53,810 nucleotides of DNA. Origin: a virus (Duplodnaviria > Caudoviricetes). Position numbers and translations under genes: made by a program. Shown here piece after piece: positions 2,279-41,304 of this stretch (positions are counted from its first letter, which is position 1; the number at the start of each line of letters is the position of its first letter). The stretch covers positions 1 through 53,810 of the IMG/VR virus record IMGVR_UViG_3300045284_000262. One strand, given 5' to 3'. The notes beneath the pieces are model-generated. The model was not told where the DNA came from. It ran no database searches and saw only the letters and a program-made list of their open reading frames with translations.

Positions 2279-4125
2279 CCCAACAGCAACTGGACTTAAT
2301 GATGAAGCAGCTGGGGATGTCATCCGACCCCGGGATTGAACCTCCGCCGCTTCCTTCTCCCCCGCCTGGAGCACCACTGGGGCCGCACCAGGGTGTTGAT
2401 GTTCCTCCCAGCACGTTTCAGGGGAATTATTTTCCACCCAATGTTCCACATGCCGGGATCAGCGTTCCTCCCGGAGTGTTTCCTCCTCCTCCCGTTATTG
2501 CCCCTGATGTCCCCGGGCAGGTCAATGTCTTTTCTGAAACCAACCCTCCCAACGTAACTTTCCCGCCTAACTACTGGGGCGGAGAACTTCCCCCGATCAA
2601 TACCAATGATCCCACCAGGAACATCGCTACGAACGAAACGATGTATCCTGATGGAAAGTTCTTCCTGGGCGATCCTGATACCTCCTACGCTACTCAGCCA
2701 GGTTTACAGGAAGAACCAATGCCAAATTTCCCCAACGCTCCTCCGGGTGGGGACTTTGCATTCTCCCAGAATTTCATAGACCAGATCAATCCTCCCACAA
2801 ATGAGAGCATGATTCCCGCATCAGGTGATTACGCCGCGAGGAATTTTGTCGATGATACAGTCACGTTCGGTGGTAACGCAGCAAGCCCCGGGGATCAGAC
2901 TTATTCCCTTGCTAATGATGCCAATACTACAGCACCTCCTCCACCTCAGTCCGGAGACTACTTTGGGCAAAACAGTTTCGACGTTCCATTTGGCGGGAGT
3001 GCAGCGCACGTTCCCTCGATCTTCCCAGCGGAGGGTGCCTATCTTCCAGGTGAGTATGAGAGATTCATGTACGGCGATACCTGGACTGCTGGCAACGACA
3101 CAGGCGGCAGTGCACCAGCAGAAGGAGCCACATACGACGACCAGGGAAACCAGATTCCTGCTGGCCCGGCATCATTTCCTCTGAACACTCCAGTCACTGG
3201 AGCTAATGGTGCAGTAGGAAGTTCTTATTCTGGAAGTCCATCAGGTGGCAGTGCTCCTTTTGTGGGAGGCGGAGAAGGTGCAGTCGGGCCGGGTGGTGGC
3301 CCGGTAATAGACCCCAGGACAGGGGAACCCGTTGCTGGAAGTTTACTCAGCGAATCTGATGCGGCCAAGCGTTATAACATGGAGAAGTTCGCTGGCGATC
3401 CCAGGTATTCGATGTCGAGCATACTTCACCCCGGACAAACGTTCGTTCATTTGTTGTCCGATGGAACCAGGGTTCTTGTTGATGCCGCTGGCAAGATCGT
3501 CCAGGGAGGCATTCAGGCGGGCAAGGATTTGTGGAGCAACATCCTGAATGACCCGCGCAACACCGATCCGGGATACCTGGCTTCCATTGGTTACCATGAA
3601 ATGGGGCCAGAAGGCAGTGGGTTCATGCTTCCTGCTGGCGTAACCGGGCCTTCCGTGGGAACGGGCGACATCGGCGTTCGCGGAGCAATCCAGGGTGGCA
3701 GCTATTTCCATGGCGGAGCAAGTGCAGGAGCGCAGCATGGCGCAACCTCAGTAGCAGGAGCGACATACAACCTTGGTGGCAGCGGGCCTGTAAATGCCGG
3801 TGCAATCGGTTCTCGCTCCGGAGCCTTGAGTCTGCTGGACAGGCAATACCTGATGAGGTTGAAGAAAGGCGTTTACACCACTCCAACGCAATACGGGGAA
3901 CGGGTCGCGGGAGCACCAAGTCCATTCCCAAACACTCCAAGCCCTGTCGCTGGCGGCAGCAACTGGAATGCCTTCCATGCTGGCCAGGTTCAACTGGGAG
4001 ACATCCTGCGCGCCAATCCCGCCTACTACTCCAGCTTGACCACCCCCATGCCCAAGACCGGTTTGGGGCCGAGCACCCCAGGGGAACGCCTGAGTCGCGG
4101 AACACCACCAAATTTACCTACATGA
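2275..4125 (+). CDS. Pro/Gly-rich, probably disordered virion-associated protein
   Basis: Long ORF; ATG 2275 overlaps the upstream TGA (ATGA) and its stop overlaps the next ATG; low-complexity P/G/N/D content. Confidence 0.7.
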   Translation: MTQQQLDLMMKQLGMSSDPGIEPPPLPSPPPGAPLGPHQGVDVPPSTFQGNYFPPNVPHAGISVPPGVFPPPPVIAPDVPGQVNVFSETNPPNVTFPPNYWGGELPPINTNDPTRNIATNETMYPDGKFFLGDPDTSYATQPGLQEEPMPNFPNAPPGGDFAFSQNFIDQINPPTNESMIPASGDYAARNFVDDTVTFGGNAASPGDQTYSLANDANTTAPPPPQSGDYFGQNSFDVPFGGSAAHVPSIFPAEGAYLPGEYERFMYGDTWTAGNDTGGSAPAEGATYDDQGNQIPAGPASFPLNTPVTGANGAVGSSYSGSPSGGSAPFVGGGEGAVGPGGGPVIDPRTGEPVAGSLLSESDAAKRYNMEKFAGDPRYSMSSILHPGQTFVHLLSDGTRVLVDAAGKIVQGGIQAGKDLWSNILNDPRNTDPGYLASIGYHEMGPEGSGFMLPAGVTGPSVGTGDIGVRGAIQGGSYFHGGASAGAQHGATSVAGATYNLGGSGPVNAGAIGSRSGALSLLDRQYLMRLKKGVYTTPTQYGERVAGAPSPFPNTPSPVAGGSNWNAFHAGQVQLGDILRANPAYYSSLTTPMPKTGLGPSTPGERLSRGTPPNLPT

Positions 4126-5993
4126 TTACTGACAAGAACAGAGTCTTTGATGGTTGGCTGACACTGGAGGGCGGCGTGGATGCAGGCCGCCTTCCGGACA
4201 CACTGGAGGTCAATCAGGCTTACGAGGGGCGCAATGTGACCTTCCGTGGTGGCAGCATGAAGACTCGCCCGGGGTTCAGAAAACTGGATGAAACCTTTGC
4301 CCAGCTCAACATTCAGAAATGGTGCTTCAATGAAGCGCACACATATCCCACTCCAGCACCCGCTCGGGACTTCATTGAGGGAGAATACAGGCCGGGCAAT
4401 ATCCCGCTGGGATCGCTTGTTCCTATCGGAACCTGCCGGTTCCATGCTGAACCCTCGCATCCTGAAAACATCCTCGTCAGCGTTGCCCATAACCTGGTGG
4501 CCAATGACCTGGTAAAGTTTACCACGACAGGGTCGCTTCCTCCGAACGTCAACACGACCACGGTGTATCATGTCCTGGTAGAAGGGCTGACCGCAACCAA
4601 GCTGCGGATTTCCCTTACCGAAGGAGGCCCGGCGATTGGGTTCAACCACTCCGGCACAGGCGTCCATACGATCCTGAAGCACTCCACCATTGATCCCTGG
4701 TTCACTAATCAGAACTCGGAGTACATCTACAAGCACGGCATCCTGCAAAGCGCAGTCGCCTATTCCCCGCACAATGGGGACGACTGCATCATCGCCATGA
4801 TCGGTGGTCGCATGTTCAGGATTGTCCCGCGTGTCACCGAAGCCAAAGTCACTGAAGTCATCATCCAGGACGAAGGGCGCGACCTACGCAACATGTCTGA
4901 TTCCCCCATCGCTTACATGGTGCAGGCCGACAAATGGCTAATCGCGCAGGATGGAAAAGCCAACGCCATCATCTACGATTCAGTCAAGGCGCGCAGGGCC
5001 AAGGTCAGCGTTGACGTTGACAACACTGAGATTCCTACCGGAACCATCATGGCCTACGGGATGGGACGACTCTGCGTGATCGTGAACAAGCGCGAGGTGG
5101 CTTTTGGTGATCTCCATGGAAGCCACGATCTTCCTGATGCTGCCGATTCATTGATCCTGTTCACCGAGCGCAACTTTCTGGCCGAAGGTTTTGATGCCGC
5201 TATTCCGTTTACCCAGGGTATAGCCACCGGGATGATCTTCTTCCCGCAGCTGGACACCTCTACTGGTAACGGCCAGCTCATGGTGTTTGCCGAGCGTGGA
5301 GCCACCAGCTTTTTCTTGTCGCTGCCGCGTGAGCTTTGGAAGACTTCATCTTTTCAAATCCTGGCACTTCTTACCACCGGGCTTCGGGGACATCGCTCCA
5401 TCTCTGTGGTGAACGAAGACCTCTGGTTCAGGTCGGATGACGGCATGCGTTCCTACCGCCAGGCGCGCAGCGAGCAGAGCGGCTGGGCGCACATCCCGCT
5501 GTCCACAAACATGAAACAATACCTGGGGAACGACAGCGACTTCCTGCTTAAATACGCTTCCGCCATCTACTTCGATAACCGCGTGCTGGTGACCACTTCA
5601 CCCATGTGGAACAACGGCAGGCCCATGCACGCAGGGATGGCGGTGGTGGATTTTGATGTCATCAGTTCCTTCAGCGGTGGACAGCCACAGCAAATCACCA
5701 AGCCAGCGTGGGAAGGCCAATGGTACAGTGACCAGTTTAATCCCACCACCATGCTGACGGGGACGTTCCAAGGGGTTACGCGTGCATTTATCTTTGGAAT
5801 AAACAACGAAGGAGAGAACCAGCTTTACGAGCTGTCGAAAGATGACAAGGACGATTTTGATGATACGCGCATCAACTGGGACATGACCACCCGTTCCTTC
5901 GATTTCAATAAACTTAACCCGCAGGACTCCACCGTGTTCACTGAGAATGAACTCTATGATGGCGACCTGTGGCTGAAGGACATTGTCGAATGA
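4122..5993 (+). CDS. Tail nozzle / stabilisation protein (P22 gp10- or T7 gp12-like), N-terminal part
   Basis: N-terminal GGVD...L..NQ....NV.FRGG..KTRPGF pattern, beta-rich body, position before adaptor and ejection genes; family call is inference. Confidence 0.6.
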   Translation: MITDKNRVFDGWLTLEGGVDAGRLPDTLEVNQAYEGRNVTFRGGSMKTRPGFRKLDETFAQLNIQKWCFNEAHTYPTPAPARDFIEGEYRPGNIPLGSLVPIGTCRFHAEPSHPENILVSVAHNLVANDLVKFTTTGSLPPNVNTTTVYHVLVEGLTATKLRISLTEGGPAIGFNHSGTGVHTILKHSTIDPWFTNQNSEYIYKHGILQSAVAYSPHNGDDCIIAMIGGRMFRIVPRVTEAKVTEVIIQDEGRDLRNMSDSPIAYMVQADKWLIAQDGKANAIIYDSVKARRAKVSVDVDNTEIPTGTIMAYGMGRLCVIVNKREVAFGDLHGSHDLPDAADSLILFTERNFLAEGFDAAIPFTQGIATGMIFFPQLDTSTGNGQLMVFAERGATSFFLSLPRELWKTSSFQILALLTTGLRGHRSISVVNEDLWFRSDDGMRSYRQARSEQSGWAHIPLSTNMKQYLGNDSDFLLKYASAIYFDNRVLVTTSPMWNNGRPMHAGMAVVDFDVISSFSGGQPQQITKPAWEGQWYSDQFNPTTMLTGTFQGVTRAFIFGINNEGENQLYELSKDDKDDFDDTRINWDMTTRSFDFNKLNPQDSTVFTENELYDGDLWLKDIVE

Positions 5994-6310: not shown

Positions 6311-7066
6311 ATGCCTAATCCAACCGTTTCAACTCAAATCACGATGCCCGACCCCAACGCGGCACCGTTAAACCTCATACAGCTCTTTCAGTTGATGAAC
6401 CTGCATCTCCATTCGGAGATCACCAGCAACTACACTCCTTACGTCCTTCAGAATGGCGAACCGGATGTGTCAGACCAGGACAAGGTGTGGTTCCAGCTCG
6501 ACTCACAGGGCCGCCCATTGGCCATCAAAGTGCATTGGAATGGCACATGGCGTCGTATCTACAACGGCATGATGAATGAAATCCGGGGTTACAGCGGCAA
6601 CCCCGGCACCGACTTTGACGCCACCGGCTGGGGCAAAATAGGCGGTGAATACGACGGCTGGCATCTGTGCAACGGCAACGATGGCGCACCGGATTACAGC
6701 GACCAGTTTCCGATAGGCGCGCACATGAACAATGAAGGCCACTCAGGTTACGTGGACAACGAGTGGGTGAGCTGGGTCGGAACCAAGACCGGAATGCATG
6801 TTGGCGGAGGGCATGAAATCACCATGACCAGTGATACTGCGTGGCAGCCTTCTAGTGGAGCTATCGTTGTAGATAAATGGAAAGCTGATGGCAATGCACG
6901 CGATCCAGCTGGGCAGCTATGGGGTAAACATTCGGACGCAACGCCTACTGCCGATACTGTAATACTTGTCGATGCAGTTAATGGAAACCTTGAGCCGTCG
7001 CCAATTTCAATCATCCCTCCCTTTGTGGCACTAGCTTGGATAATCTTCCTGGGATACCGAACATGA
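6311..7066 (+). CDS. Tail collar domain protein
   Basis: GWHLCNGNDGAPDYSDQFPIGA and C-terminal IIPPFVALAWII match the phage tail collar consensus. Confidence 0.75.
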   Translation: MPNPTVSTQITMPDPNAAPLNLIQLFQLMNLHLHSEITSNYTPYVLQNGEPDVSDQDKVWFQLDSQGRPLAIKVHWNGTWRRIYNGMMNEIRGYSGNPGTDFDATGWGKIGGEYDGWHLCNGNDGAPDYSDQFPIGAHMNNEGHSGYVDNEWVSWVGTKTGMHVGGGHEITMTSDTAWQPSSGAIVVDKWKADGNARDPAGQLWGKHSDATPTADTVILVDAVNGNLEPSPISIIPPFVALAWIIFLGYRT

Positions 7067-8496
7067 TTACATCACCAGATTCAGTAGACGCGGCGGATAT
7101 TGTGTTTCCGCCACCGCAGGATTTTCTTCCAATCCCCGGGGGAATGCAGTTCAAGGACGTTGCTCCCATGATTGCAGGAGTCGTGGACAATGGCGTGGGC
7201 TTTGATGACCCGCGTGTCCTAGTTCGCTTGAACGAGGCCACGAAAATTATCCTGGATTACATGATCCCCGTGGGCGGCATGATGGTCTGCAATATCACCG
7301 CCATAAGCCGGTTCCTGGTGCTGCCTCCCAATATGGAGAACATCATCGAGGCGCACCCGCTGACTCCAGTCGATTCCACTGCTGCCTACGGGAACAAGGA
7401 CACTACTCAGGTCTGGTATGAGATGGTGAGCCAGTCGGCGTATCTCGATCCGTCACAGGCCATGGACAATCCGCTGCTGGATTTCGGCCTGAACGGCAAC
7501 CCAACCGACCCGGAGGATGTGAGGAGGATTTACTTCTACCCCGGACTTAACCCAGCCAATGCGGTGATCCAGGTGACCGGAGCGAAGCGTTACCTCCCGC
7601 TCAAAGGTGACGAGGACTACCTCATCATCCAGAACATCGAAGCCATTAAGTGCATCATCCTTTCCATTGAGCGTTACGAGAACAACGCCCCGGACGAGGC
7701 CCAGAAATACCGCCAGAGCGGGATAGACATCCTTCAGGCCGAGATCAAGAAGCACCTCTTTGATCCCCGCAACTACATGCATCGGAAGTCCGGGTATCTG
7801 GAGGACATCGTGGACTTCAGGGAAAACACCCTGGGCTGGGTGCGCGCGCAAATCGCGCTCGACCTCCCGGAAGCCCTCCGGATGTCCAAGCGCGACCTCA
7901 CCTGGACAATCCAGCAGGCCGAGCGCAGGCTCATGGAGCGCGGAATCTGGAAAGACACCGTGGTCACCATCCATGGGACGGTGCTTGGCGGCCTCCTTTA
8001 TATGCCCACCAGCGTTGAATCGGTTCTGGCGGTTGATCTTTGCGGCAGGCCAATTCCTATCAGGAGCCAGTTCTTCCAGTTCCTGGAGAACGGGCCAGGG
8101 GGTGCTTCATGCAGCAACATGCTTATTGACCAGGGCAACAAGCAGCAGCCTGGGTTTGCCGCGCCACGCCGGGCCTACAAGCTGGTCGCCAACTGCGACA
8201 CAGGATCGAGCTTTACCGCCGTATGCAAACTGAAGTGGGTTTTGAAAGACCCCGGGGACATGATGAGCATCAAGAACTACGAGGCCATCAGGTTAATGGT
8301 GCAGGCCAAAATACTTGAGGAACCTCAGACCCCGCCCAACCCTCAGGCCGCGCAGGAGTCCATGATGAAGCAGCAGGTGGCCCTGGACATTTTGGACAAG
8401 GAACTCAAAAACTACCTGTCTGGAATCAGGCACACCGTTCACATCCAGACTTACGGTTTTGGCATGCAGGACGTTGGTAATTACTGGAGTCGATAA
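7063..8496 (+). CDS. Structural protein with tandem-duplicated domain (putative tail adaptor, tubular protein A-like)
   Basis: ATG 7063 in ATGA overlap; two similar halves (LKGDEDYLIIQNIEAIK..DILQAEIKKHL vs LKDPGDMMSIKNYEAIR..DILDKELKNYL). Confidence 0.55.
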   Translation: MITSPDSVDAADIVFPPPQDFLPIPGGMQFKDVAPMIAGVVDNGVGFDDPRVLVRLNEATKIILDYMIPVGGMMVCNITAISRFLVLPPNMENIIEAHPLTPVDSTAAYGNKDTTQVWYEMVSQSAYLDPSQAMDNPLLDFGLNGNPTDPEDVRRIYFYPGLNPANAVIQVTGAKRYLPLKGDEDYLIIQNIEAIKCIILSIERYENNAPDEAQKYRQSGIDILQAEIKKHLFDPRNYMHRKSGYLEDIVDFRENTLGWVRAQIALDLPEALRMSKRDLTWTIQQAERRLMERGIWKDTVVTIHGTVLGGLLYMPTSVESVLAVDLCGRPIPIRSQFFQFLENGPGGASCSNMLIDQGNKQQPGFAAPRRAYKLVANCDTGSSFTAVCKLKWVLKDPGDMMSIKNYEAIRLMVQAKILEEPQTPPNPQAAQESMMKQQVALDILDKELKNYLSGIRHTVHIQTYGFGMQDVGNYWSR

Positions 8497-10508: not shown

Positions 10509-13500
10509 ATGGCTGATCCCGATCCAGATCAGGACATTCTTGATTTTTATAATCAGCGTAAGGGATCACCGTCTCCTGGTGGGTCGCCTGCGGCCACGAT
10601 GACCCCTGACCCGGATCAGGACATCCTTGATTTTTACAACAAGAGCCACAGCCCTACGCCTACCGCTACCGCTTCTCCTTCTCATTCCGGGACTCCTTAC
10701 ACTGACAAGGCGGTTCAAGATCAATCCACTACTCTTTCCCAGCAGGGAAAGCCAGGAGCGATTGCAGCCATTGGCGGTGCTGCGGTCAGAGGTTTCCTGC
10801 CAGGAAGGGCAATGCTGGCAGCTTATCCCTGGGGTAGCATTGCAGGGGCAGCAGCAGTAGGAGCAGCCCGTGGTGCATTGGTTGGAGCAGCTGTGCCAGT
10901 AGCTGGAGAAACCGGCATCAGTGAAGCAATCGGTGGAGTCTTTGGTGGATTGATTGCTGGTGCGGCTGCCGCATGGGGAGTGTCAAAACTTCAAACCGCA
11001 GCGGCTGATGTGATTTCCCCCGGGGGAGCATTTTCCTCCAAGACAGAGCAGGCCCAGACGGAGGCACATCCTTACGCATCAATCGTGGGTGGCGGGCTTT
11101 CCTTCGGGAAGCCAAACCCAATGAATGTTGTCAGGGCAGGTAAGACCCTGGCCAGCGCGGAAGGCCGGGCAGCCCTGGTCGCGTTCACCAAGACAGGCGG
11201 CAAGGGGATGGCTCCTCAAGCCGTGGATGAAATAGGGAACGTCATCAATGTGTCCATGGCTGGAGGTTTGAACTCGGCTTTCAACGTCAAAGACCAGATT
11301 GAGTCCGGTAAGTTTGATCCAACTCAGCTGGCCGTGGCCGCAGCCACGGGGTTAATTTTCAGTGAGCCATGGTTTCATAAGCCGAACCCGGCGGCAGCTG
11401 CGGCGGCCAAGACATTGGCCAGCGGTGGCGCGCCTCCTGCGGCTGGGCCAGCAGCTCCTGCCGGGCCTGCACCACCCAGTCCTCCAGTCGCTCCAGGGAT
11501 GGTTCCTCCGCCCACACCAGTAATCCCGGGGTTACTTCCTTTTGAGACTAATCCACCGATTCATCCCGCGTCCGAAATTGCGCGCGCGCCAGCAGCACCT
11601 TTACCAGAAGCACCAATACCAAAACCAGGAACAGAAGGAGGAATCACAAATGCCACTCAAGAAGGGCCAGTCGCAGAAAGTAGTGTCGAGCAACATCCGG
11701 GAGTTTCATCTGGGCAAAACGTACCAGAAAACGTTACAGACAAAGGGCCGGTCGGTAGCGAACCAGCAGGCAATCGCGGTCGCGCTGGCGAAGCGGCGAC
11801 AGAGCCGGTAGCGGAAAGTCCGTACTACATCAAGGAAGATGCCCTGGGGTTCGGAGTCATCGACCGGGAAGCGAACAAGATTGTCTCGGTCAAAGCCACT
11901 GAGGAAGAAGCCAGGGCCAAGATGGCCGAGCTGGAAGCTGCACGGCAGCCAGCTGAACCGGTGATAGAGCACGACTCGGGGCTGAAGTCCGAATACAGCA
12001 CCGAGAATGCCTCAGTCAAAGTGTCCAAGAACGGATACATCAGGGACTTGTTCGTTAAGCCAGAGGCGCGCAGGCAGGGCGAAGGAACAGCCCTGATGGA
12101 GCAGGTGTTTGCCGACGCTGACAAGTCCGGGATACCACTCACCCTGCATGTCGGGGAACAGAGAACCGATCTTCCTGGCTTTTATGAAAAGCTGGGATTC
12201 AGGGTGGATGGCAAAGACCAGTTCGGAACCAGGTATGTGCGTGATCCGGTAAAGGAACCGACAACCCCGGAAACCCCATTCTCTATTAAGGAGGATCACG
12301 GCGTATACAAGGTGGTAGACAGTCGTAAGCCTGACGCCCTGACCATTCCGTTCAGCACCGAGGAAGCAGCCCAGAAGCGTAAGGCAGCCCTGGACAAGAC
12401 GTTTCTGGCGCAGGTTGCCAAAGCCACAGCCGAGAAGGGGTCAGACGAAACAGCCAAGGAGCTGCTCAAGATGCAGCGGGAGTATGAGGCGTCCTTACTG
12501 GAGGAAGCCCAGGGCCACCAGGCCAAGGGCGGAGATGAGCTGCTTGATGTCGTGTCCGAGCATGGCGTTCCCCTGAATGATCCTAATTACTCCGGGGAAC
12601 TTAGGAACCTCAAGGAGCACTTCGCGCCGAAGAACAAATACGGCCAGGAGAAGCACCGGCCCCTGGCCAGCGGTAGCGGGGAGAAGCTCTATTTCGGAGA
12701 AGTGTTCAAGGCCAAGGCGCAGGGCAACATGGACAGCCTGACCCAGCTCCTGAAGAACAGAGGTTTCGATGTCGAAACCCCGGATGACGCTATCAACCTG
12801 ATTGATGAGCGGCTGCGGAGCGGAAATAAAGTTTACGGGGACGAAGGGCGCGCGCATGAGCTGGAACGCCAATCGTTCGGGGATTACCAGGAGCCAATGC
12901 GAGCAGCTCCAGGAGGAGGTGAAGCAAAGGGCGGTCTTACCCAGGATGAATTTAGCCGAATGGTTCAGTTGCAGACCAAGCTCAGTAAAAAAATAATGGG
13001 CATTGGGGATATAGGAAAGGATGAATTGTCCGAACTGTATCGGCTCAAAGACAAGCAGGAAGGCGTCATTGAAGGAGATTTTGTTAAACAATCCGATGAT
13101 GAAAAATGGTCGCCGCAAAAGTCCTGGCTGCCCGGGCGCAAGAAAAGTCCTGACCAGCTGGACAAGGACATTGCCATTGCCGCAAAGAAGGAGGAAGACC
13201 TCTCGCTTCCCAAGTCTGAACCCGGAACGGACATTGTAGGAACCAGCCAGGACGCGGAGCAGGTAGATCGTTTGATAGGCGAGAAGGCTTACAGTAATTC
13301 AATCGTAAACGTCATCATCAAGGAGCTGCTTCAGAACGGTTTTGATGCGGTGCGCGAAGGTGGTGTAAGCAAGGCAAAGCCCGGCCAGATAAGCATTGAT
13401 TACGATTACGATACTCGCACCATCACCGTCAGAGATGATGGAGTGGGCATGTCTCCTGAAACTATTGTGACTGCCTTCCTGCGAACCGGTGGCACAAAGA

Positions 13501-16500
13501 AAAGCGGTGACCACCAGAATACATCCGGTGGGTTGGGCGTGGCGAAGCTGGCATTCATCAAGGGTTCAAAACGAATCAAGCTGGTAACAGTCAAGGATGG
13601 CCTGAAAACCGTGATGGACGTAAGCCGGGAGCAGGTAAAGGCCAACCAGATTCCATTGGTTAAGACCTACACCAATGAGCCTAATGGAAGCACGGTCACC
13701 GTGGAAATCCCCAAAGACTACATCAACAGCAAGGGTGAAACCATTCCCGTTCATTTCGATACCGATCCCGAGTTCCTGAAGAACCCTCTTTTTGGTGATG
13801 TGGAAGTAAAAGTGAACGGGGTTCCAAACCACATGGGGATTCACAGCACGGGCTGGGTGAAGGATAACGTATTCAATTTCGACTGGGGCCATGCCAATGT
13901 CTACGTCGATCCCAGCCCGCTAAAGAAATACACGTATACAGAGGGCACATATCCTCCCGTGTACAGGGTAATGTCGGCTGGATTGCATCAGTTTGAAGTT
14001 CCCTGGCAGCACATCTTCGACAAGGCGGAACAGCGGATACCCCACAACATGGTGATTGATGTCAGGCCGCATGTTGACACCAAAGACCCTCAGTATCCTT
14101 TCGATAACCAGAGGGAAGGATGGCGCGGCTCGGTAAAGGCTGACGCCACTGCCATGTATTCCTACCTGAAAAGGCAGGGGCTGGAGCAAGACCTGAAGAA
14201 GTCCCAGGAACAGTTCAAGGAACTACAGGTAATGACCCATATCCCGATTGAGGACATGGGTAAAACCTTTACCGCTGACCAGCTTTATCAGGGCGATGCC
14301 ACCCAGGGAGCAGCAGGAAGGGTTACGCTGCCAAAGATTCAAAGTGTAGATGTTAAGCGTGACAAGGTGGTTACCACTTATGCCGGTGGCAAGAAAGAGG
14401 TTCAATCACATGAGCAGTTTAACAAACCATCGTTCAGTGCCGAAAGAGAAATTGATTTTGAAAAGACAAAGCTGGATACCAGTCACCTAGACCCGAAGAA
14501 TCCTCTATATCACAACAATACCAACGTTGATTTCGAGAAGATAAAGGGTGCTCCCGAACTGCACGCCAAACTTGGCAGCATGCTTATCCAGTTCATGCGC
14601 GCATTCGGTGCCAAATTCGGGGCAGACCCAACAGCACGGCCTGAGTATGCTCAACTCACCAATACCACACCTGGCAAAGCATGGCTTGGTGGTATTTCAT
14701 ACGATGCGAAGTATGCCGGATACAATATAACCAACCCATTCAGGTCGCTCTGGGCTAATCCTGCCGGAATTTCTGACGGTGGGATGAGTAGTCCCAGAAG
14801 GGCAGCGTTTGAAATGCTGCATATATTCCTCCATGAGATTACCCATGTTCCGGAACGTAACGAAGGGGGTGGATTTACCAGGGAAGAAATCAACAACATC
14901 GGAAGGATGGCTGATTTTCCGGAGCAACAAAAGTTTTTACAGACGATGGAGCAGGTGTTAAGTCAACATTGGGACACATTACATGAAATCAGAGATAAGT
15001 ACTTCGCTAAAAGTACAGCAAACCGTTCCGAAGGTTTCAAAACTGGCTCGCAACTTGAGCCAGAATCCAAAGGAGGTAAAGGAACTGACAAAGGTGTTCC
15101 TTCAGAGCATGCACAGGAAGCTGTCAGCGATAAAGACCCCGGACAAACCGGCCCTGGACGAGCTGGAGAAACAAATCCAAAATCTGGGCAGCTCGGAACA
15201 ATCCTCGAGGCTGCGAAATCCGGAGAGAAGTCCGGAGCTGAACCCGCCCACCCCGAAGTCGCTGCTACCCCACCCGAGCCTCAAGGAAGGTCTGCCGCCG
15301 CCCCCGTTTCTGAAGGGGTCGGTGGACGAGGTGGCTTAGCCGAGCCTCTTTCTCATCCCTCAGGGGAGCCGATCACATTTTATCACGGGCAGGGACAGCG
15401 CGGGCTGGGCACTGGTGACCTTAAACCTCCTGTTTATTTTACCCCGGACAAAGAGTTCGCCAGGGGCTACGAGGAGCAGAACGGCATCTTCAGGGAACCC
15501 AGCGAGCACAGCTTGCACCTCAAGAATCCCAAGGTCATCCAGATAACCGAGGAGCAAGTGCGTTCAGGTGCCCATGAAATGGGAGCCTCGGAAAGCAGCT
15601 ACATCAATCAAGCCAGGATGCGTCAGTATCAGAAGCAGGGATACGACGGTGTTATTTCAAAGCTGCCAGACGGAAAGATTTATGAAGCTGCTGTCTTTGA
15701 CCAGGGTGCAATCCGAAGGAACAAATGGAGCGAGCAACAGGTGTCGGCAGAACTGGAGAGGCAGTTCCAATACCATCGCGGGTCACCAAAATACGACCAG
15801 GAAAGACACAGGACGGATTACGAAAATCTGGTCAAGGAATCGGGTTGGACAAAGAACGAAATCTCAGCGTTGTCCGACAAGGAGTTTGACCAGGGAGTTA
15901 AAGCGGTCAGGGGTGACACCGCTGGAGTCAGTGGCATCAAGGACACCCTGGCAGGGATCAAGGAAGCGGCAGCGCAGCCTCCGGAAACCCCAGAGCAGCG
16001 CGAGTTCGCACCGCGACCGGTAGAGACGGGCGATTATGAACCAAGGCCGCCTACCGCCAATGAGGCTGCTGGCCCGGGGTTGCGCGACCTGTCCGACCAG
16101 CAGATGTCCCAGGTCATCTCCAACTCGCTCCAGAAATTCCATGACGAAGGGATAACAGAGTCCGTTGATTCCTCCGGTGGCATGTCGCATAACGACATCA
16201 TCGACGCTGGCCGGGAAGCCATCAGGCATGGCGTTGACCCAGAGGCCGTGGCTGCTTCTCGCGCAATCCCCAGCGAGCAGAAATACACCGTGGTAAAAGC
16301 GCACGCCGAGGATTTGCGGGAGGTTTCAGAGCACGCAGAGAACCTGGCCAAGACCCATCCCACCCAGGCGAACAAGGACGCAGCCGACAAAGCCTTTGCT
16401 GATTACTCCAACTGGGACACCAAGACCGTGAAGCCAATCAGGGATGCTGTTGACGCCGAGCACCCGGGCATGCCGCCTGAAGAATACAACCCGCGCAGCA

Positions 16501-16733
16501 TGACCGATCTGCGGCAGCAGATGATCCGGCAGAACGGGCATGACTTTACCACGGCGCAACGAAAGGATGCGGAACAACTCCTGAAGCAAATCCATAAGAC
16601 CGTGGAAGCGCGCAACAAAGAGCTGATGAAACGTGACGCCCAGCTGGCAAAGGAATCCCCGGAGCTGGTCAAGGAGATAAAAAATGGTGACGACTTGTTC
16701 AAATACATTGCCGAAATGGTAATCTGCCCCTGA
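10509..16733 (+). CDS. Giant polyvalent internal virion protein: GNAT + GHKL ATPase + HExxH zincin + ART-like domain
   Basis: GNAT (LFVKPEARRQGEGTALM..FYEKLGF, ~12033-12243); GHKL boxes (ELLQNGFDA, DDGVGM, GGLGVA, GSTV, ~13311-13715); HEITH at 14832; FYHG..VYFT..A.GY..GYDGV..EAAVFD (~15375-15717). Confidence 0.85.
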   Translation: MADPDPDQDILDFYNQRKGSPSPGGSPAATMTPDPDQDILDFYNKSHSPTPTATASPSHSGTPYTDKAVQDQSTTLSQQGKPGAIAAIGGAAVRGFLPGRAMLAAYPWGSIAGAAAVGAARGALVGAAVPVAGETGISEAIGGVFGGLIAGAAAAWGVSKLQTAAADVISPGGAFSSKTEQAQTEAHPYASIVGGGLSFGKPNPMNVVRAGKTLASAEGRAALVAFTKTGGKGMAPQAVDEIGNVINVSMAGGLNSAFNVKDQIESGKFDPTQLAVAAATGLIFSEPWFHKPNPAAAAAAKTLASGGAPPAAGPAAPAGPAPPSPPVAPGMVPPPTPVIPGLLPFETNPPIHPASEIARAPAAPLPEAPIPKPGTEGGITNATQEGPVAESSVEQHPGVSSGQNVPENVTDKGPVGSEPAGNRGRAGEAATEPVAESPYYIKEDALGFGVIDREANKIVSVKATEEEARAKMAELEAARQPAEPVIEHDSGLKSEYSTENASVKVSKNGYIRDLFVKPEARRQGEGTALMEQVFADADKSGIPLTLHVGEQRTDLPGFYEKLGFRVDGKDQFGTRYVRDPVKEPTTPETPFSIKEDHGVYKVVDSRKPDALTIPFSTEEAAQKRKAALDKTFLAQVAKATAEKGSDETAKELLKMQREYEASLLEEAQGHQAKGGDELLDVVSEHGVPLNDPNYSGELRNLKEHFAPKNKYGQEKHRPLASGSGEKLYFGEVFKAKAQGNMDSLTQLLKNRGFDVETPDDAINLIDERLRSGNKVYGDEGRAHELERQSFGDYQEPMRAAPGGGEAKGGLTQDEFSRMVQLQTKLSKKIMGIGDIGKDELSELYRLKDKQEGVIEGDFVKQSDDEKWSPQKSWLPGRKKSPDQLDKDIAIAAKKEEDLSLPKSEPGTDIVGTSQDAEQVDRLIGEKAYSNSIVNVIIKELLQNGFDAVREGGVSKAKPGQISIDYDYDTRTITVRDDGVGMSPETIVTAFLRTGGTKKSGDHQNTSGGLGVAKLAFIKGSKRIKLVTVKDGLKTVMDVSREQVKANQIPLVKTYTNEPNGSTVTVEIPKDYINSKGETIPVHFDTDPEFLKNPLFGDVEVKVNGVPNHMGIHSTGWVKDNVFNFDWGHANVYVDPSPLKKYTYTEGTYPPVYRVMSAGLHQFEVPWQHIFDKAEQRIPHNMVIDVRPHVDTKDPQYPFDNQREGWRGSVKADATAMYSYLKRQGLEQDLKKSQEQFKELQVMTHIPIEDMGKTFTADQLYQGDATQGAAGRVTLPKIQSVDVKRDKVVTTYAGGKKEVQSHEQFNKPSFSAEREIDFEKTKLDTSHLDPKNPLYHNNTNVDFEKIKGAPELHAKLGSMLIQFMRAFGAKFGADPTARPEYAQLTNTTPGKAWLGGISYDAKYAGYNITNPFRSLWANPAGISDGGMSSPRRAAFEMLHIFLHEITHVPERNEGGGFTREEINNIGRMADFPEQQKFLQTMEQVLSQHWDTLHEIRDKYFAKSTANRSEGFKTGSQLEPESKGGKGTDKGVPSEHAQEAVSDKDPGQTGPGRAGETNPKSGQLGTILEAAKSGEKSGAEPAHPEVAATPPEPQGRSAAAPVSEGVGGRGGLAEPLSHPSGEPITFYHGQGQRGLGTGDLKPPVYFTPDKEFARGYEEQNGIFREPSEHSLHLKNPKVIQITEEQVRSGAHEMGASESSYINQARMRQYQKQGYDGVISKLPDGKIYEAAVFDQGAIRRNKWSEQQVSAELERQFQYHRGSPKYDQERHRTDYENLVKESGWTKNEISALSDKEFDQGVKAVRGDTAGVSGIKDTLAGIKEAAAQPPETPEQREFAPRPVETGDYEPRPPTANEAAGPGLRDLSDQQMSQVISNSLQKFHDEGITESVDSSGGMSHNDIIDAGREAIRHGVDPEAVAASRAIPSEQKYTVVKAHAEDLREVSEHAENLAKTHPTQANKDAADKAFADYSNWDTKTVKPIRDAVDAEHPGMPPEEYNPRSMTDLRQQMIRQNGHDFTTAQRKDAEQLLKQIHKTVEARNKELMKRDAQLAKESPELVKEIKNGDDLFKYIAEMVICP
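11650..11811 (+). CDS. Nested 53-aa basic protein (MPLKKG...SNI.E...QAIAVAL type) in the +1 frame of the giant gene
   Basis: AAGGAGG 7 nt upstream of ATG 11650; sequence resembles a recurrent small phage protein type (from memory, not searched). Confidence 0.6.
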   Translation: MPLKKGQSQKVVSSNIREFHLGKTYQKTLQTKGRSVANQQAIAVALAKRRQSR

Positions 16734-18388: not shown

Positions 18389-18955
18389 ATGACAAAGAAC
18401 ATAAAACTTAACCCCGGAGACGTCCTTGTTATCACCGTAGAGAAGGCGGCACCTCCTCCTACTACCATTGAAGACCTTGAAGTGCTGATGACCATCGGGT
18501 CGGTGGACATCCTGACCAACAGGGACAAAACCTATTGCAGCTTTGTGTCAAACCTGGACATCTGCAACGACGGAAGCGGCCCTGCTCATGGTGACAAGCA
18601 CCATCAGGCCATGACCGCCTACTGCTCCGGCGGCAAGACTGGCAGCAAATACATGAACGCTGATGTGGACAGGTATATTGTCGTGCCTCCTCAGATTCGC
18701 GCCAAGTTACCCGGGGTGGTAATGGGTTGCCGTGGCAGGGTGACCAACCTGAGAACGCAGGTGGAGGAGCATGGTGTGGTGGGAGACATCGGCCCTGACG
18801 ATAAGACCGGAGAGACAGCTTATGTGTTGGCCAAGAAGATCAACCCGAACATTGAGCACAACTCCGGGGATAGTAACAAAGACTATCTCTACGAGCTATG
18901 GCCTGACGTTCCCGGTACTGACGGGGACTTTACGTATAAACTTCAACCTGCGTAG
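18389..18955 (+). CDS. Glycoside hydrolase family 75 (chitosanase-like), putative lysin
   Basis: LDICNDGSG, MNADVDRYIVVP and VVGDIGP...GETAYVLA match the GH75 pattern; last gene of the structural block. Confidence 0.7.
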   Translation: MTKNIKLNPGDVLVITVEKAAPPPTTIEDLEVLMTIGSVDILTNRDKTYCSFVSNLDICNDGSGPAHGDKHHQAMTAYCSGGKTGSKYMNADVDRYIVVPPQIRAKLPGVVMGCRGRVTNLRTQVEEHGVVGDIGPDDKTGETAYVLAKKINPNIEHNSGDSNKDYLYELWPDVPGTDGDFTYKLQPA

Positions 18956-41002: not shown

Positions 41003-41304
41003 CGATAGAAGAATTTCGTTCCCACGAAACTTTGCCCGGGCAATGGGCCAAGGAACTTTCCACCAACGAGGTGCTGCGCGCCGTCCTTGGTTGCATGAAC
41101 GACAATCACCCGGCCCATTTCGCCATCCATGGTGACAAGAACGAGGACGTCTCTCCCGTGCGCGCCGGGATCGAGCTTGGTCTTACCCGGGGCTGGTTCA
41201 AATACTCCGACACATTGTTCCTTTTGGCCAAACGCAAGATGGCTACCCCAGGCGCAGGCCAGACCACCTACGAACCAGAATTGAAGGAGAAACAAAATGC
41301 CTGA
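40999..41304 (+). CDS. Hypothetical protein between portal and scaffold
   Basis: ATGA overlap; typical position. Confidence 0.7.
   Translation: MTIEEFRSHETLPGQWAKELSTNEVLRAVLGCMNDNHPAHFAIHGDKNEDVSPVRAGIELGLTRGWFKYSDTLFLLAKRKMATPGAGQTTYEPELKEKQNA

Follow-up and report, generated by a model that had tools for sequence, protein, structure and literature searches.

The phage genome fragment studied here, IMG/VR record IMGVR_UViG_3300045284_000262, comes from an uncultured soil phage and has a completeness rating of 99%; its full 53,810 bases are referred to below as the window. On the + strand of the window, a 53-amino-acid open reading frame (ORF) at 11650–11811 lies inside a giant ORF of 2074 amino acids (10509–16733, + strand), and it occupies the +1 frame of that ORF because 11650 − 10509 = 3 × 380 + 1. 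We conclude that this small ORF is probably a functional, independently initiated overlapping gene in the ancestral frame, yielding a free, basic, three-helix protein related to the DUF6496 family (PF20106). It had originally been predicted to be a once-independent gene, engulfed by or overprinting the gene of a polyvalent protein and perhaps still translated. The homology and comparative data described below for this ORF lie far beyond chance.

The nested ORF opens at ATG 11650 with a translation identical to the peptide of the original prediction, closes with TAG at 11809–11811, and encodes a product with a net charge of about +11. It was said to follow, after 7 nt, one of the strongest Shine-Dalgarno (SD) motifs of the window; the motif AAGGAGG (11635–11641, + strand) is indeed the strongest before any of the 28 listed + strand gene starts, but the spacer measures 8 nt. 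AAGGAGG occurs seven times on the + strand of the window, four of them within the purine-rich giant ORF, and is by itself weak evidence for a nested gene; among the seven, only the copy at 11635–11641 stands before a start codon whose ORF has homologues. A recognizable SD motif is lacking in most genes of this phage, which start where the previous gene ends, and an AAGGA(G)-type motif is found at 11650 and, among the other listed + strand starts, only at 41297 and 43383. A blastn search with 10509–13500 gave no matches among cultured phage records. As a separate observation, short contigs from the same soil samples (runs X5 and X6) match the window at 11647–11682, only from the nested start codon on. 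Upstream, their sequence is different and includes an AGGAG motif of its own, pointing to further relatives that share the same similarity island.

The nested peptide belongs to phrog_2423 (E 1.9e-7, 32 bits, residues 1–52 on profile positions 1–40 of 52). A search of 5.8 billion proteins returned 18 candidates, 16 of which reach E ≤ 0.01 (1.9e-12 to 4e-6), and these are stand-alone proteins of 53–82 amino acids that are 55–72% identical to the peptide; the resemblance to stand-alone phage genes, as first proposed, is thus borne out, with numerous homologues. In an alignment of 17 sequences, the nested peptide retains all 21 invariant columns, including M1-P2-L3, and 12 of the 17 close family members match PF20106 at E ≤ 0.01. 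A profile search of 1.84 billion representatives gave 1329 clusters at E ≤ 1e-3. Among the best 150 of these 1329, 102 are no longer than 110 amino acids, 41 have 111–400 and seven are longer (up to 1253), and 111 start with MPL; the domain is at or near the N-terminus, the match beginning at residue 1 in most cases and by residue 57 in the others, so that in these representatives the family takes the form of DUF6496, a short protein or an extreme N-terminal domain. AlphaFold2, given 47 aligned sequences, predicts a three-helix protein (helices 9–20, 23–31, and 34–51; pLDDT 92.4, pTM 0.70), and a BFVD fold search with this model found uncharacterized phage proteins only, some of them as N-terminal parts of larger proteins. 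Translated searches contributed little: tblastn with a Lys-rich nested copy gave no matches, probably due to the low-complexity filter, and tblastn with P0008 gave only six distant matches, all stand-alone.

The nested arrangement recurs in other phages. Our main sample consists of 50 viral loci that were found through the small protein, a sampling that decayed copies would escape. In ten of them (L005, L006, which is identical to L005, L008, L020, L027, L028, L032, L045, L050, and L051) the small gene lies within an ORF of 1302–2808 codons and keeps the same relative frame; in 14 the small domain is the N-terminal domain of proteins of 142–694 amino acids, and in the remaining 26 the gene is stand-alone or partial. 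Of 78 metagenome loci, 76 were examined, and five have the gene nested in the same frame (L072, L083, L121, and duplicates of L028 and L051), whereas a scan of contigs from metagenome-assembled genomes gave three loci only, all stand-alone. Including the window, there are 13 distinct nested sequences, in ORFs of 1097–2808 codons. The original prediction would have been undermined by stops in this frame in close relatives; none were found, and start, stop and length are intact in these 13 sequences and in three further copies obtained through a flanking gene, with GTG as the start codon in L083. Where the small gene is free-standing, the frame equivalent to the giant one carries stops. The giant ORFs are mosaic, pieces being shared in some pairs and the overlap region being common to all, and in nine giant ORFs of nested loci the only Pfam domain is LPD38, in L027.

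Two side observations concern the other arrangements of the small gene. DUF6496-type domains are fused N-terminally to proteins of 187–694 amino acids in L023, L031, L036, L037, L039, L044, and L046; most of the fused proteins share a C-terminal region, GRTDKLP...SALGQGN...AAGGEYI.HPD...GH..LD, that matches no known family, and the one in L036 also has a weak match to the DUF6782 metallopeptidase. In L104, the small gene (1647–1802) is fully covered by a 453-codon ORF (538–1896) in the other alternative frame, which ends 94 nt later and may be an extension of the upstream gene over the small gene or a chance frame.

Since a search with the small protein misses copies that have decayed, relatives were also fetched through a flanking gene of the window (7036–8496), giving six loci; another gene (4122–5993) gives the same contigs. 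One locus, L144, ends before the site, and all five informative loci, with four distinct sequences, have a +1-frame nested ORF of the superfamily inside a giant ORF. L137 and L138 are the contigs of L006 and L005, L139 and L145 have nested ORFs of 53 amino acids, and L140 has one of 72 amino acids (14124–14342) that is a canonical Pfam DUF6496 (39.6 bits, cut-off 24). Given L140, nested DUF6496 genes are possibly commoner than the pattern search indicates. An AGGAG-type motif lies 7–11 nt upstream of the nested start in L005, L139, L140, and L145, and thus all five members of this lineage, including the window, have such a motif. Flanking genes in the lineage have 50–89% protein identity, yet in blastp the giant protein of the window has no match to the giants of L139 and L140, and its only match to those of L005 and L145 is across the overlap. 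Therefore, the nested gene is what stays constant while the rest of the giant gene is replaced.

Divergence within the overlap follows the codons of the small frame. Pairwise nucleotide differences at its positions 1, 2, and 3 are 0.335, 0.252, and 0.524 among nine gapless nested copies, and 0.305, 0.262, and 0.635 among 21 stand-alone copies, while the mean amino acid identity of the nested copies is 0.639 in the small frame vs. 0.320 in the giant frame. The Nei-Gojobori pN/pS ratios of eight nested pairs are 0.19–0.46 in the small frame and 1.49–2.91 in the giant frame, and those of six further pairs are 0.29–0.60 and 1.21–2.56, with synonymous sites near saturation (pS up to 0.86). This two-frame comparison in relatives, which had been proposed as a check, indicates that purifying selection acts on the small frame but not on the host frame. 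The giant frame is nevertheless kept open. T is present at 3% of small-frame third positions in nested copies vs. 16% in stand-alone copies, and T before an AA, AG, or GA codon, which makes a stop in the giant frame, occurs in 0 of 134 cases when nested vs. 46 of 336 when stand-alone. Both frames are thus under selection, as in an embedded gene pair, with no amino-acid-level constraint on the giant one, which over the overlap behaves as a passenger, a sequence-tolerant linker. Among 39 segments of the giant ORF, the highest codon-usage score for the +1 frame belongs to 11622–11780 (159 nt), which covers most of the nested ORF.

Several observations weigh against a functional nested gene. The nested peptide has no PF20106 row at E ≤ 1, and the gathering threshold (24 bits) is not reached; as its relatives do match, we class it with a subfamily related to DUF6496 rather than among the Pfam-defined members, and it belongs to a distinct MPLKKG/NIREFH subfamily, mostly of uncultured phages. 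Fold searches with the model of the small protein gave no convincing solved relative: Foldseek against the Protein Data Bank (PDB) found nothing at E ≤ 0.001, and a PDB sequence profile search found nothing below E 0.2. The best VIA-align match, 7wmp_A from the tail of Helicobacter phage KHP30 (Z 5.4, rmsd 1.6 over 43 residues), was rejected as within the noise range of helical bundles. Codon usage within the overlap favors neither frame (0.034 vs. 0.050), and an SD-like motif is weak or absent before the nested copies of L008/L045, L027, L028, L050, and L051. In nine of 13 loci, the 50 nt around the nested start rank in the 9% with the least structure among windows of the surrounding giant ORF, but this stretch is not unusually unstructured in L027, L028, L051, and L083, and the low structure in the nine may follow from the Lys-rich coding sequence or base composition. 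The L139 peptide is 51% identical to that of the window, although the flanking gene is 89% identical, and it deviates at family-invariant residues (NIREFH to NLKELR), which could reflect relaxed constraint in that copy. Moreover, most loci were found through the small protein, the unbiased sample comprising four distinct sequences, and we infer continued translation of the nested gene from the selection signature and the SD motif.

The last of these points, together with the several copies that have no clear SD motif and the departures in L139, favors a silent relic, that is, a once-independent gene that was recently swallowed, is no longer translated, and is recognizable only for lack of time. 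We consider such a relic unlikely, since at about 64% mean amino acid identity and with synonymous sites as diverged as described above, all 16 copies keep start, stop and length, their small-frame pN/pS ratios remain well below one, and nesting outlasts the complete turnover of the surrounding giant sequence. It might instead be argued that conservation acts on the giant frame or on the nucleic acid itself, e.g., on a cis element such as a recombination site or an RNA structure, with the open +1 frame arising incidentally: T is depleted at the first codon position of the giant frame, which stays open, and recombination boundaries coincide with the element in the two close pairs described below. 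However, differences concentrate at the small-frame wobble position, corresponding to position 1 of giant-frame codons, pN/pS of the giant frame exceeds one in 14 of 14 pairs, and the same protein is free-standing where the giant-equivalent frame carries stops. Further, the slot in L140 holds a different, canonical DUF6496 sequence, and therefore it is the protein family that is conserved and not the nucleotide sequence, leaving this explanation among the least probable that we considered.

Programmed ribosomal frameshifting, by which the N-terminal part of the giant protein would be fused to a C-terminal DUF6496 domain without any separate small protein, is geometrically possible in the window, where 42 codons of open +1 frame precede the ATG, and likewise in L008, L032, and L045. 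In six of ten nested loci, though, a small-frame stop lies 0–5 codons upstream of the ATG, and in L145 one lies four codons upstream; no search for slippery sites was made. Therefore, a frameshift fusion cannot be the general mechanism, and the N-terminal MPL start agrees with this, as does the N-terminal or nearly N-terminal position of the domain in the best 150 of the 1329 representatives; we regard frameshifting as highly improbable. The giant ORF might also not be one gene at all, but upstream and downstream genes joined by an assembly error or a chance open frame, with the small gene between them. In support of this, homologues of giant segments are found as separate genes abutting free or fused small genes, e.g., a 1093-amino-acid ORF in L031 that ends 3 nt before the small gene. 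Yet the giant frame is continuous across 16 independent nested assemblies (1020–2808 codons), contigs from three other runs match parts of the window with 0 differences (covering the overlap in two) and thus reveal no population variation, and one contig, from a run that may be the source, spans the entire stretch. With stop-generating T so strictly avoided, the joining of two genes by error or chance is very unlikely, too.

The functional, separately translated gene thus remains our preferred explanation, and the next consideration is how it came to be nested. By the phylogenetic criterion for overlapping genes set out in PMC8227390, the more widely distributed of the two frames is ancestral, and on this ground we infer that the small frame is the older. 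De novo overprinting, for which the contained frame should have a restricted distribution and no homologues beyond the overlap, does not fit the hundreds of free-standing or N-terminally fused homologues. The giant frame would then have come to cover the small gene through fusion of its flanking genes or through insertion of a small-gene cassette into a linker. In some loci, as mentioned for L031, homologues of giant segments are separate large genes beside free or fused small genes, and this fits fusion across the small gene; cassette insertion would give the same picture. That the gene was once independent and then engulfed is thus plausible from the much wider distribution of the small frame and from these separate neighboring genes. 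A tree of 39 small-protein sequences (52 columns) is too short to resolve their history, but at least two changes of nesting state are forced, and the stand-alone L007 groups with the window and L005 (97/84).

Taken together, we hypothesize that the nested gene shares its late mRNA with the giant gene, and that its translation starts independently at its own SD site and ATG to produce a free, strongly basic three-helix protein of 53 amino acids from the DUF6496-related family, while the giant frame would pass the 160 nt of overlap as a disordered linker whose only visible constraint is to stay open. The product may act in virion assembly or inside the virion, made together with a giant protein that would be injected. 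Such a function is predicted from the late-gene context and because stand-alone homologues adjoin portal, scaffold, and capsid genes, and we hold it to be possible, though well short of probable. In annotated phages, distant homologues are free-standing hypothetical genes of the head-morphogenesis region; they directly follow the portal gene (DSL-LC04) or a P22-type coat gene, or lie immediately ahead of a "capsid and scaffold" gene. Free homologues are carried by cultured phages such as Prochlorococcus phage P-HS2 (gene 42), phage DSL-LC04, and Ralstonia phage RSB1.

Comparison of close pairs suggests, as a lead, recombinational exchange at or of the nested gene. L005 (6770–12649) and L072 (309–6194) are 98.2% identical over 5886 nt, and 21 of their 103 differences fall within nt 1237–1351 of the ORF (about 115 nt), i.e., the nested gene, 13 of the 21 at its wobble position. 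L008 (7253–11158) and L045 (1–3906) have a recombination junction in the 3′ part of the nested gene: divergence is about 20% upstream of it, and only four differences occur in the 3000 nt that follow. The clustering of divergence at the nested gene, together with the allele of another subfamily in L140, is what points to exchange. It is conceivable, albeit doubtful, that the nested gene is the sole constant element of a hypervariable giant effector gene and serves as a homology anchor for swapping N- and C-terminal arms and small-gene alleles. If this is true, it would be the presence of an essential conserved gene inside a linker that allows polyvalent proteins to be shuffled as modules.

The giant host gene encodes a multidomain protein of polyvalent type and sits in a single + strand block, a late/structural block, with genes for tail-fiber, decoration-like, and virion proteins. 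Its GNAT acetyltransferase domain (residues 503–571, 12015–12221; Acetyltransf_10 E 5.6e-10, Acetyltransf_1 E 3.7e-9) and its GHKL-type ATPase domain HATPase_c (residues 934–1069, 13308–13715; HATPase_c_3 E 5.9e-11, 43 bits, cut-off 25) exceed the Pfam cut-offs. A possible ART-PolyVal ADP-ribosyltransferase domain (residues 1618–1735, 15360–15713; E 9.1e-5) falls short, with 23.7 bits against 31.2. All three are on the + strand, and with such unrelated domains in one phage polypeptide the protein fits the polyvalent type; RIIA-like PHROGs found in a profile search further support the ATPase domain. Packaging of the giant protein and its injection with the DNA is a candidate property, suggested only by where its gene lies, in the late/structural block. 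Where it covers the nested gene, the host frame had been described as a low-complexity linker, with which both composition and model agree: P, A, G, S, T, E, and Q make up 69–76% of residues 290–440, and a single-sequence AlphaFold2 model has no secondary structure at residues 301–434 (pLDDT 42–57), the folded modules beginning at about 439. This predicted disordered linker spans 11409–11810 (+ strand), and its last 54 codons overlap the nested gene.

Two other +1-frame ORFs in low-complexity linkers of the giant gene, 14983–15339 (118 amino acids) and 15568–16023 (151 amino acids), were considered as nested genes and rejected, as neither reaches a family match below E 0.02 and both are probably chance frames; in segment 14961–15119, the codon scores are nearly equal in both frames. 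The N-terminus of the giant protein (10509–10650) has a duplicated motif, PDPDQDILDFYN, at residues 4–15 and 34–45. The GNAT domain is flanked by two similar short modules (about 11820–11960 and 12240–12400), SPYYIKED...EEEARAKMAEL and TPFSIKED...EEAAQKRKAAL, with a predicted fold of three strands and a helix. Pfam and PHROGs searches of 20 neighboring proteins of the window identified only tail-fiber proteins, decoration-like proteins, and a primase/helicase; no portal, capsid, or terminase was identified among these 20, and the module assignment around the giant gene is therefore coarse. Two genes downstream of the giant gene, a 188-amino-acid protein (18389–18955) has a sub-threshold match to Glyco_hydro_75 (chitosanase; 21.8 bits, cut-off 27) and is kept in L005 (59% identity), where it directly follows the giant gene.

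Nested genes of this class are invisible to standard annotation. When nine nested small proteins were sought in about 15 billion predicted proteins, none were present, whereas a stand-alone control was, and family censuses and phage gene counts therefore miss the class. The case also offers a clean natural example of an internal overlap with an old contained gene and a containing frame that would be the newcomer, and it bears on how overlaps originate, by gene fusion or read-through across a neighbor rather than de novo birth. As the only conserved piece of fast-changing giants, the nested gene gives a handle for finding, aligning, and studying them and their recombination, and it raises the testable question of what DUF6496-type proteins do in phage particles. 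Our literature searches on polyvalent proteins, embedded or overlapping phage genes, and purifying selection in metagenomes gave no description of it, and DUF6496 is named in no paper of the library searched.

Compared with known families, the nested protein resembles DUF6496 (PF20106) and phrog_2423 in its size, N-terminal position, ...EFH.G...QAIA.AL core, and basic charge, and differs from DUF6496 in having no reported PF20106 score and in forming the MPLKKG/NIREFH subfamily. Its host resembles the polyvalent proteins described in PMC5512222 in being a giant phage protein with unrelated domains (GNAT, GHKL ATPase, weak ART-PolyVal) that is mosaic between relatives, one nested relative having LPD38; unlike polyvalent proteins, most giant ORFs carrying the nested gene are without any Pfam domain. 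A term search of that paper found nothing on genes lying inside others in a different frame. As in the viral overprinted genes reviewed in PMC8227390, the overlap is internal, on the same strand and in the +1 frame, and one product is disordered, which eases the double constraint. By the criterion of that review, however, the contained small gene is here the ancestral one and the new frame would be the linker of the containing gene, opposite to what is usual for internal overlaps.

The closest parallel is lambda Rz/Rz1, in which, according to PMC5295617, a larger phage gene wholly encloses a small one in its +1 frame, the hosting region of Rz is mutationally silent over about 40 codons, and the pair is embedded or separated across phages. 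In the same way, our nested gene is wholly inside a larger ORF on the same strand and in the +1 frame, sits in a change-tolerant part of the host protein, and has embedded and separate states across phages. Unlike Rz1, it has no sequence or functional relation to spanins, its host protein has about 2000 amino acids vs. about 150, and it also occurs widely on its own and as an N-terminal domain, so that the genealogy is reversed. On this comparative evidence, the nested gene is a real, conserved overlapping gene of the embedded type, and it is new in the type of its host protein, in its family, and in its reversed genealogy.

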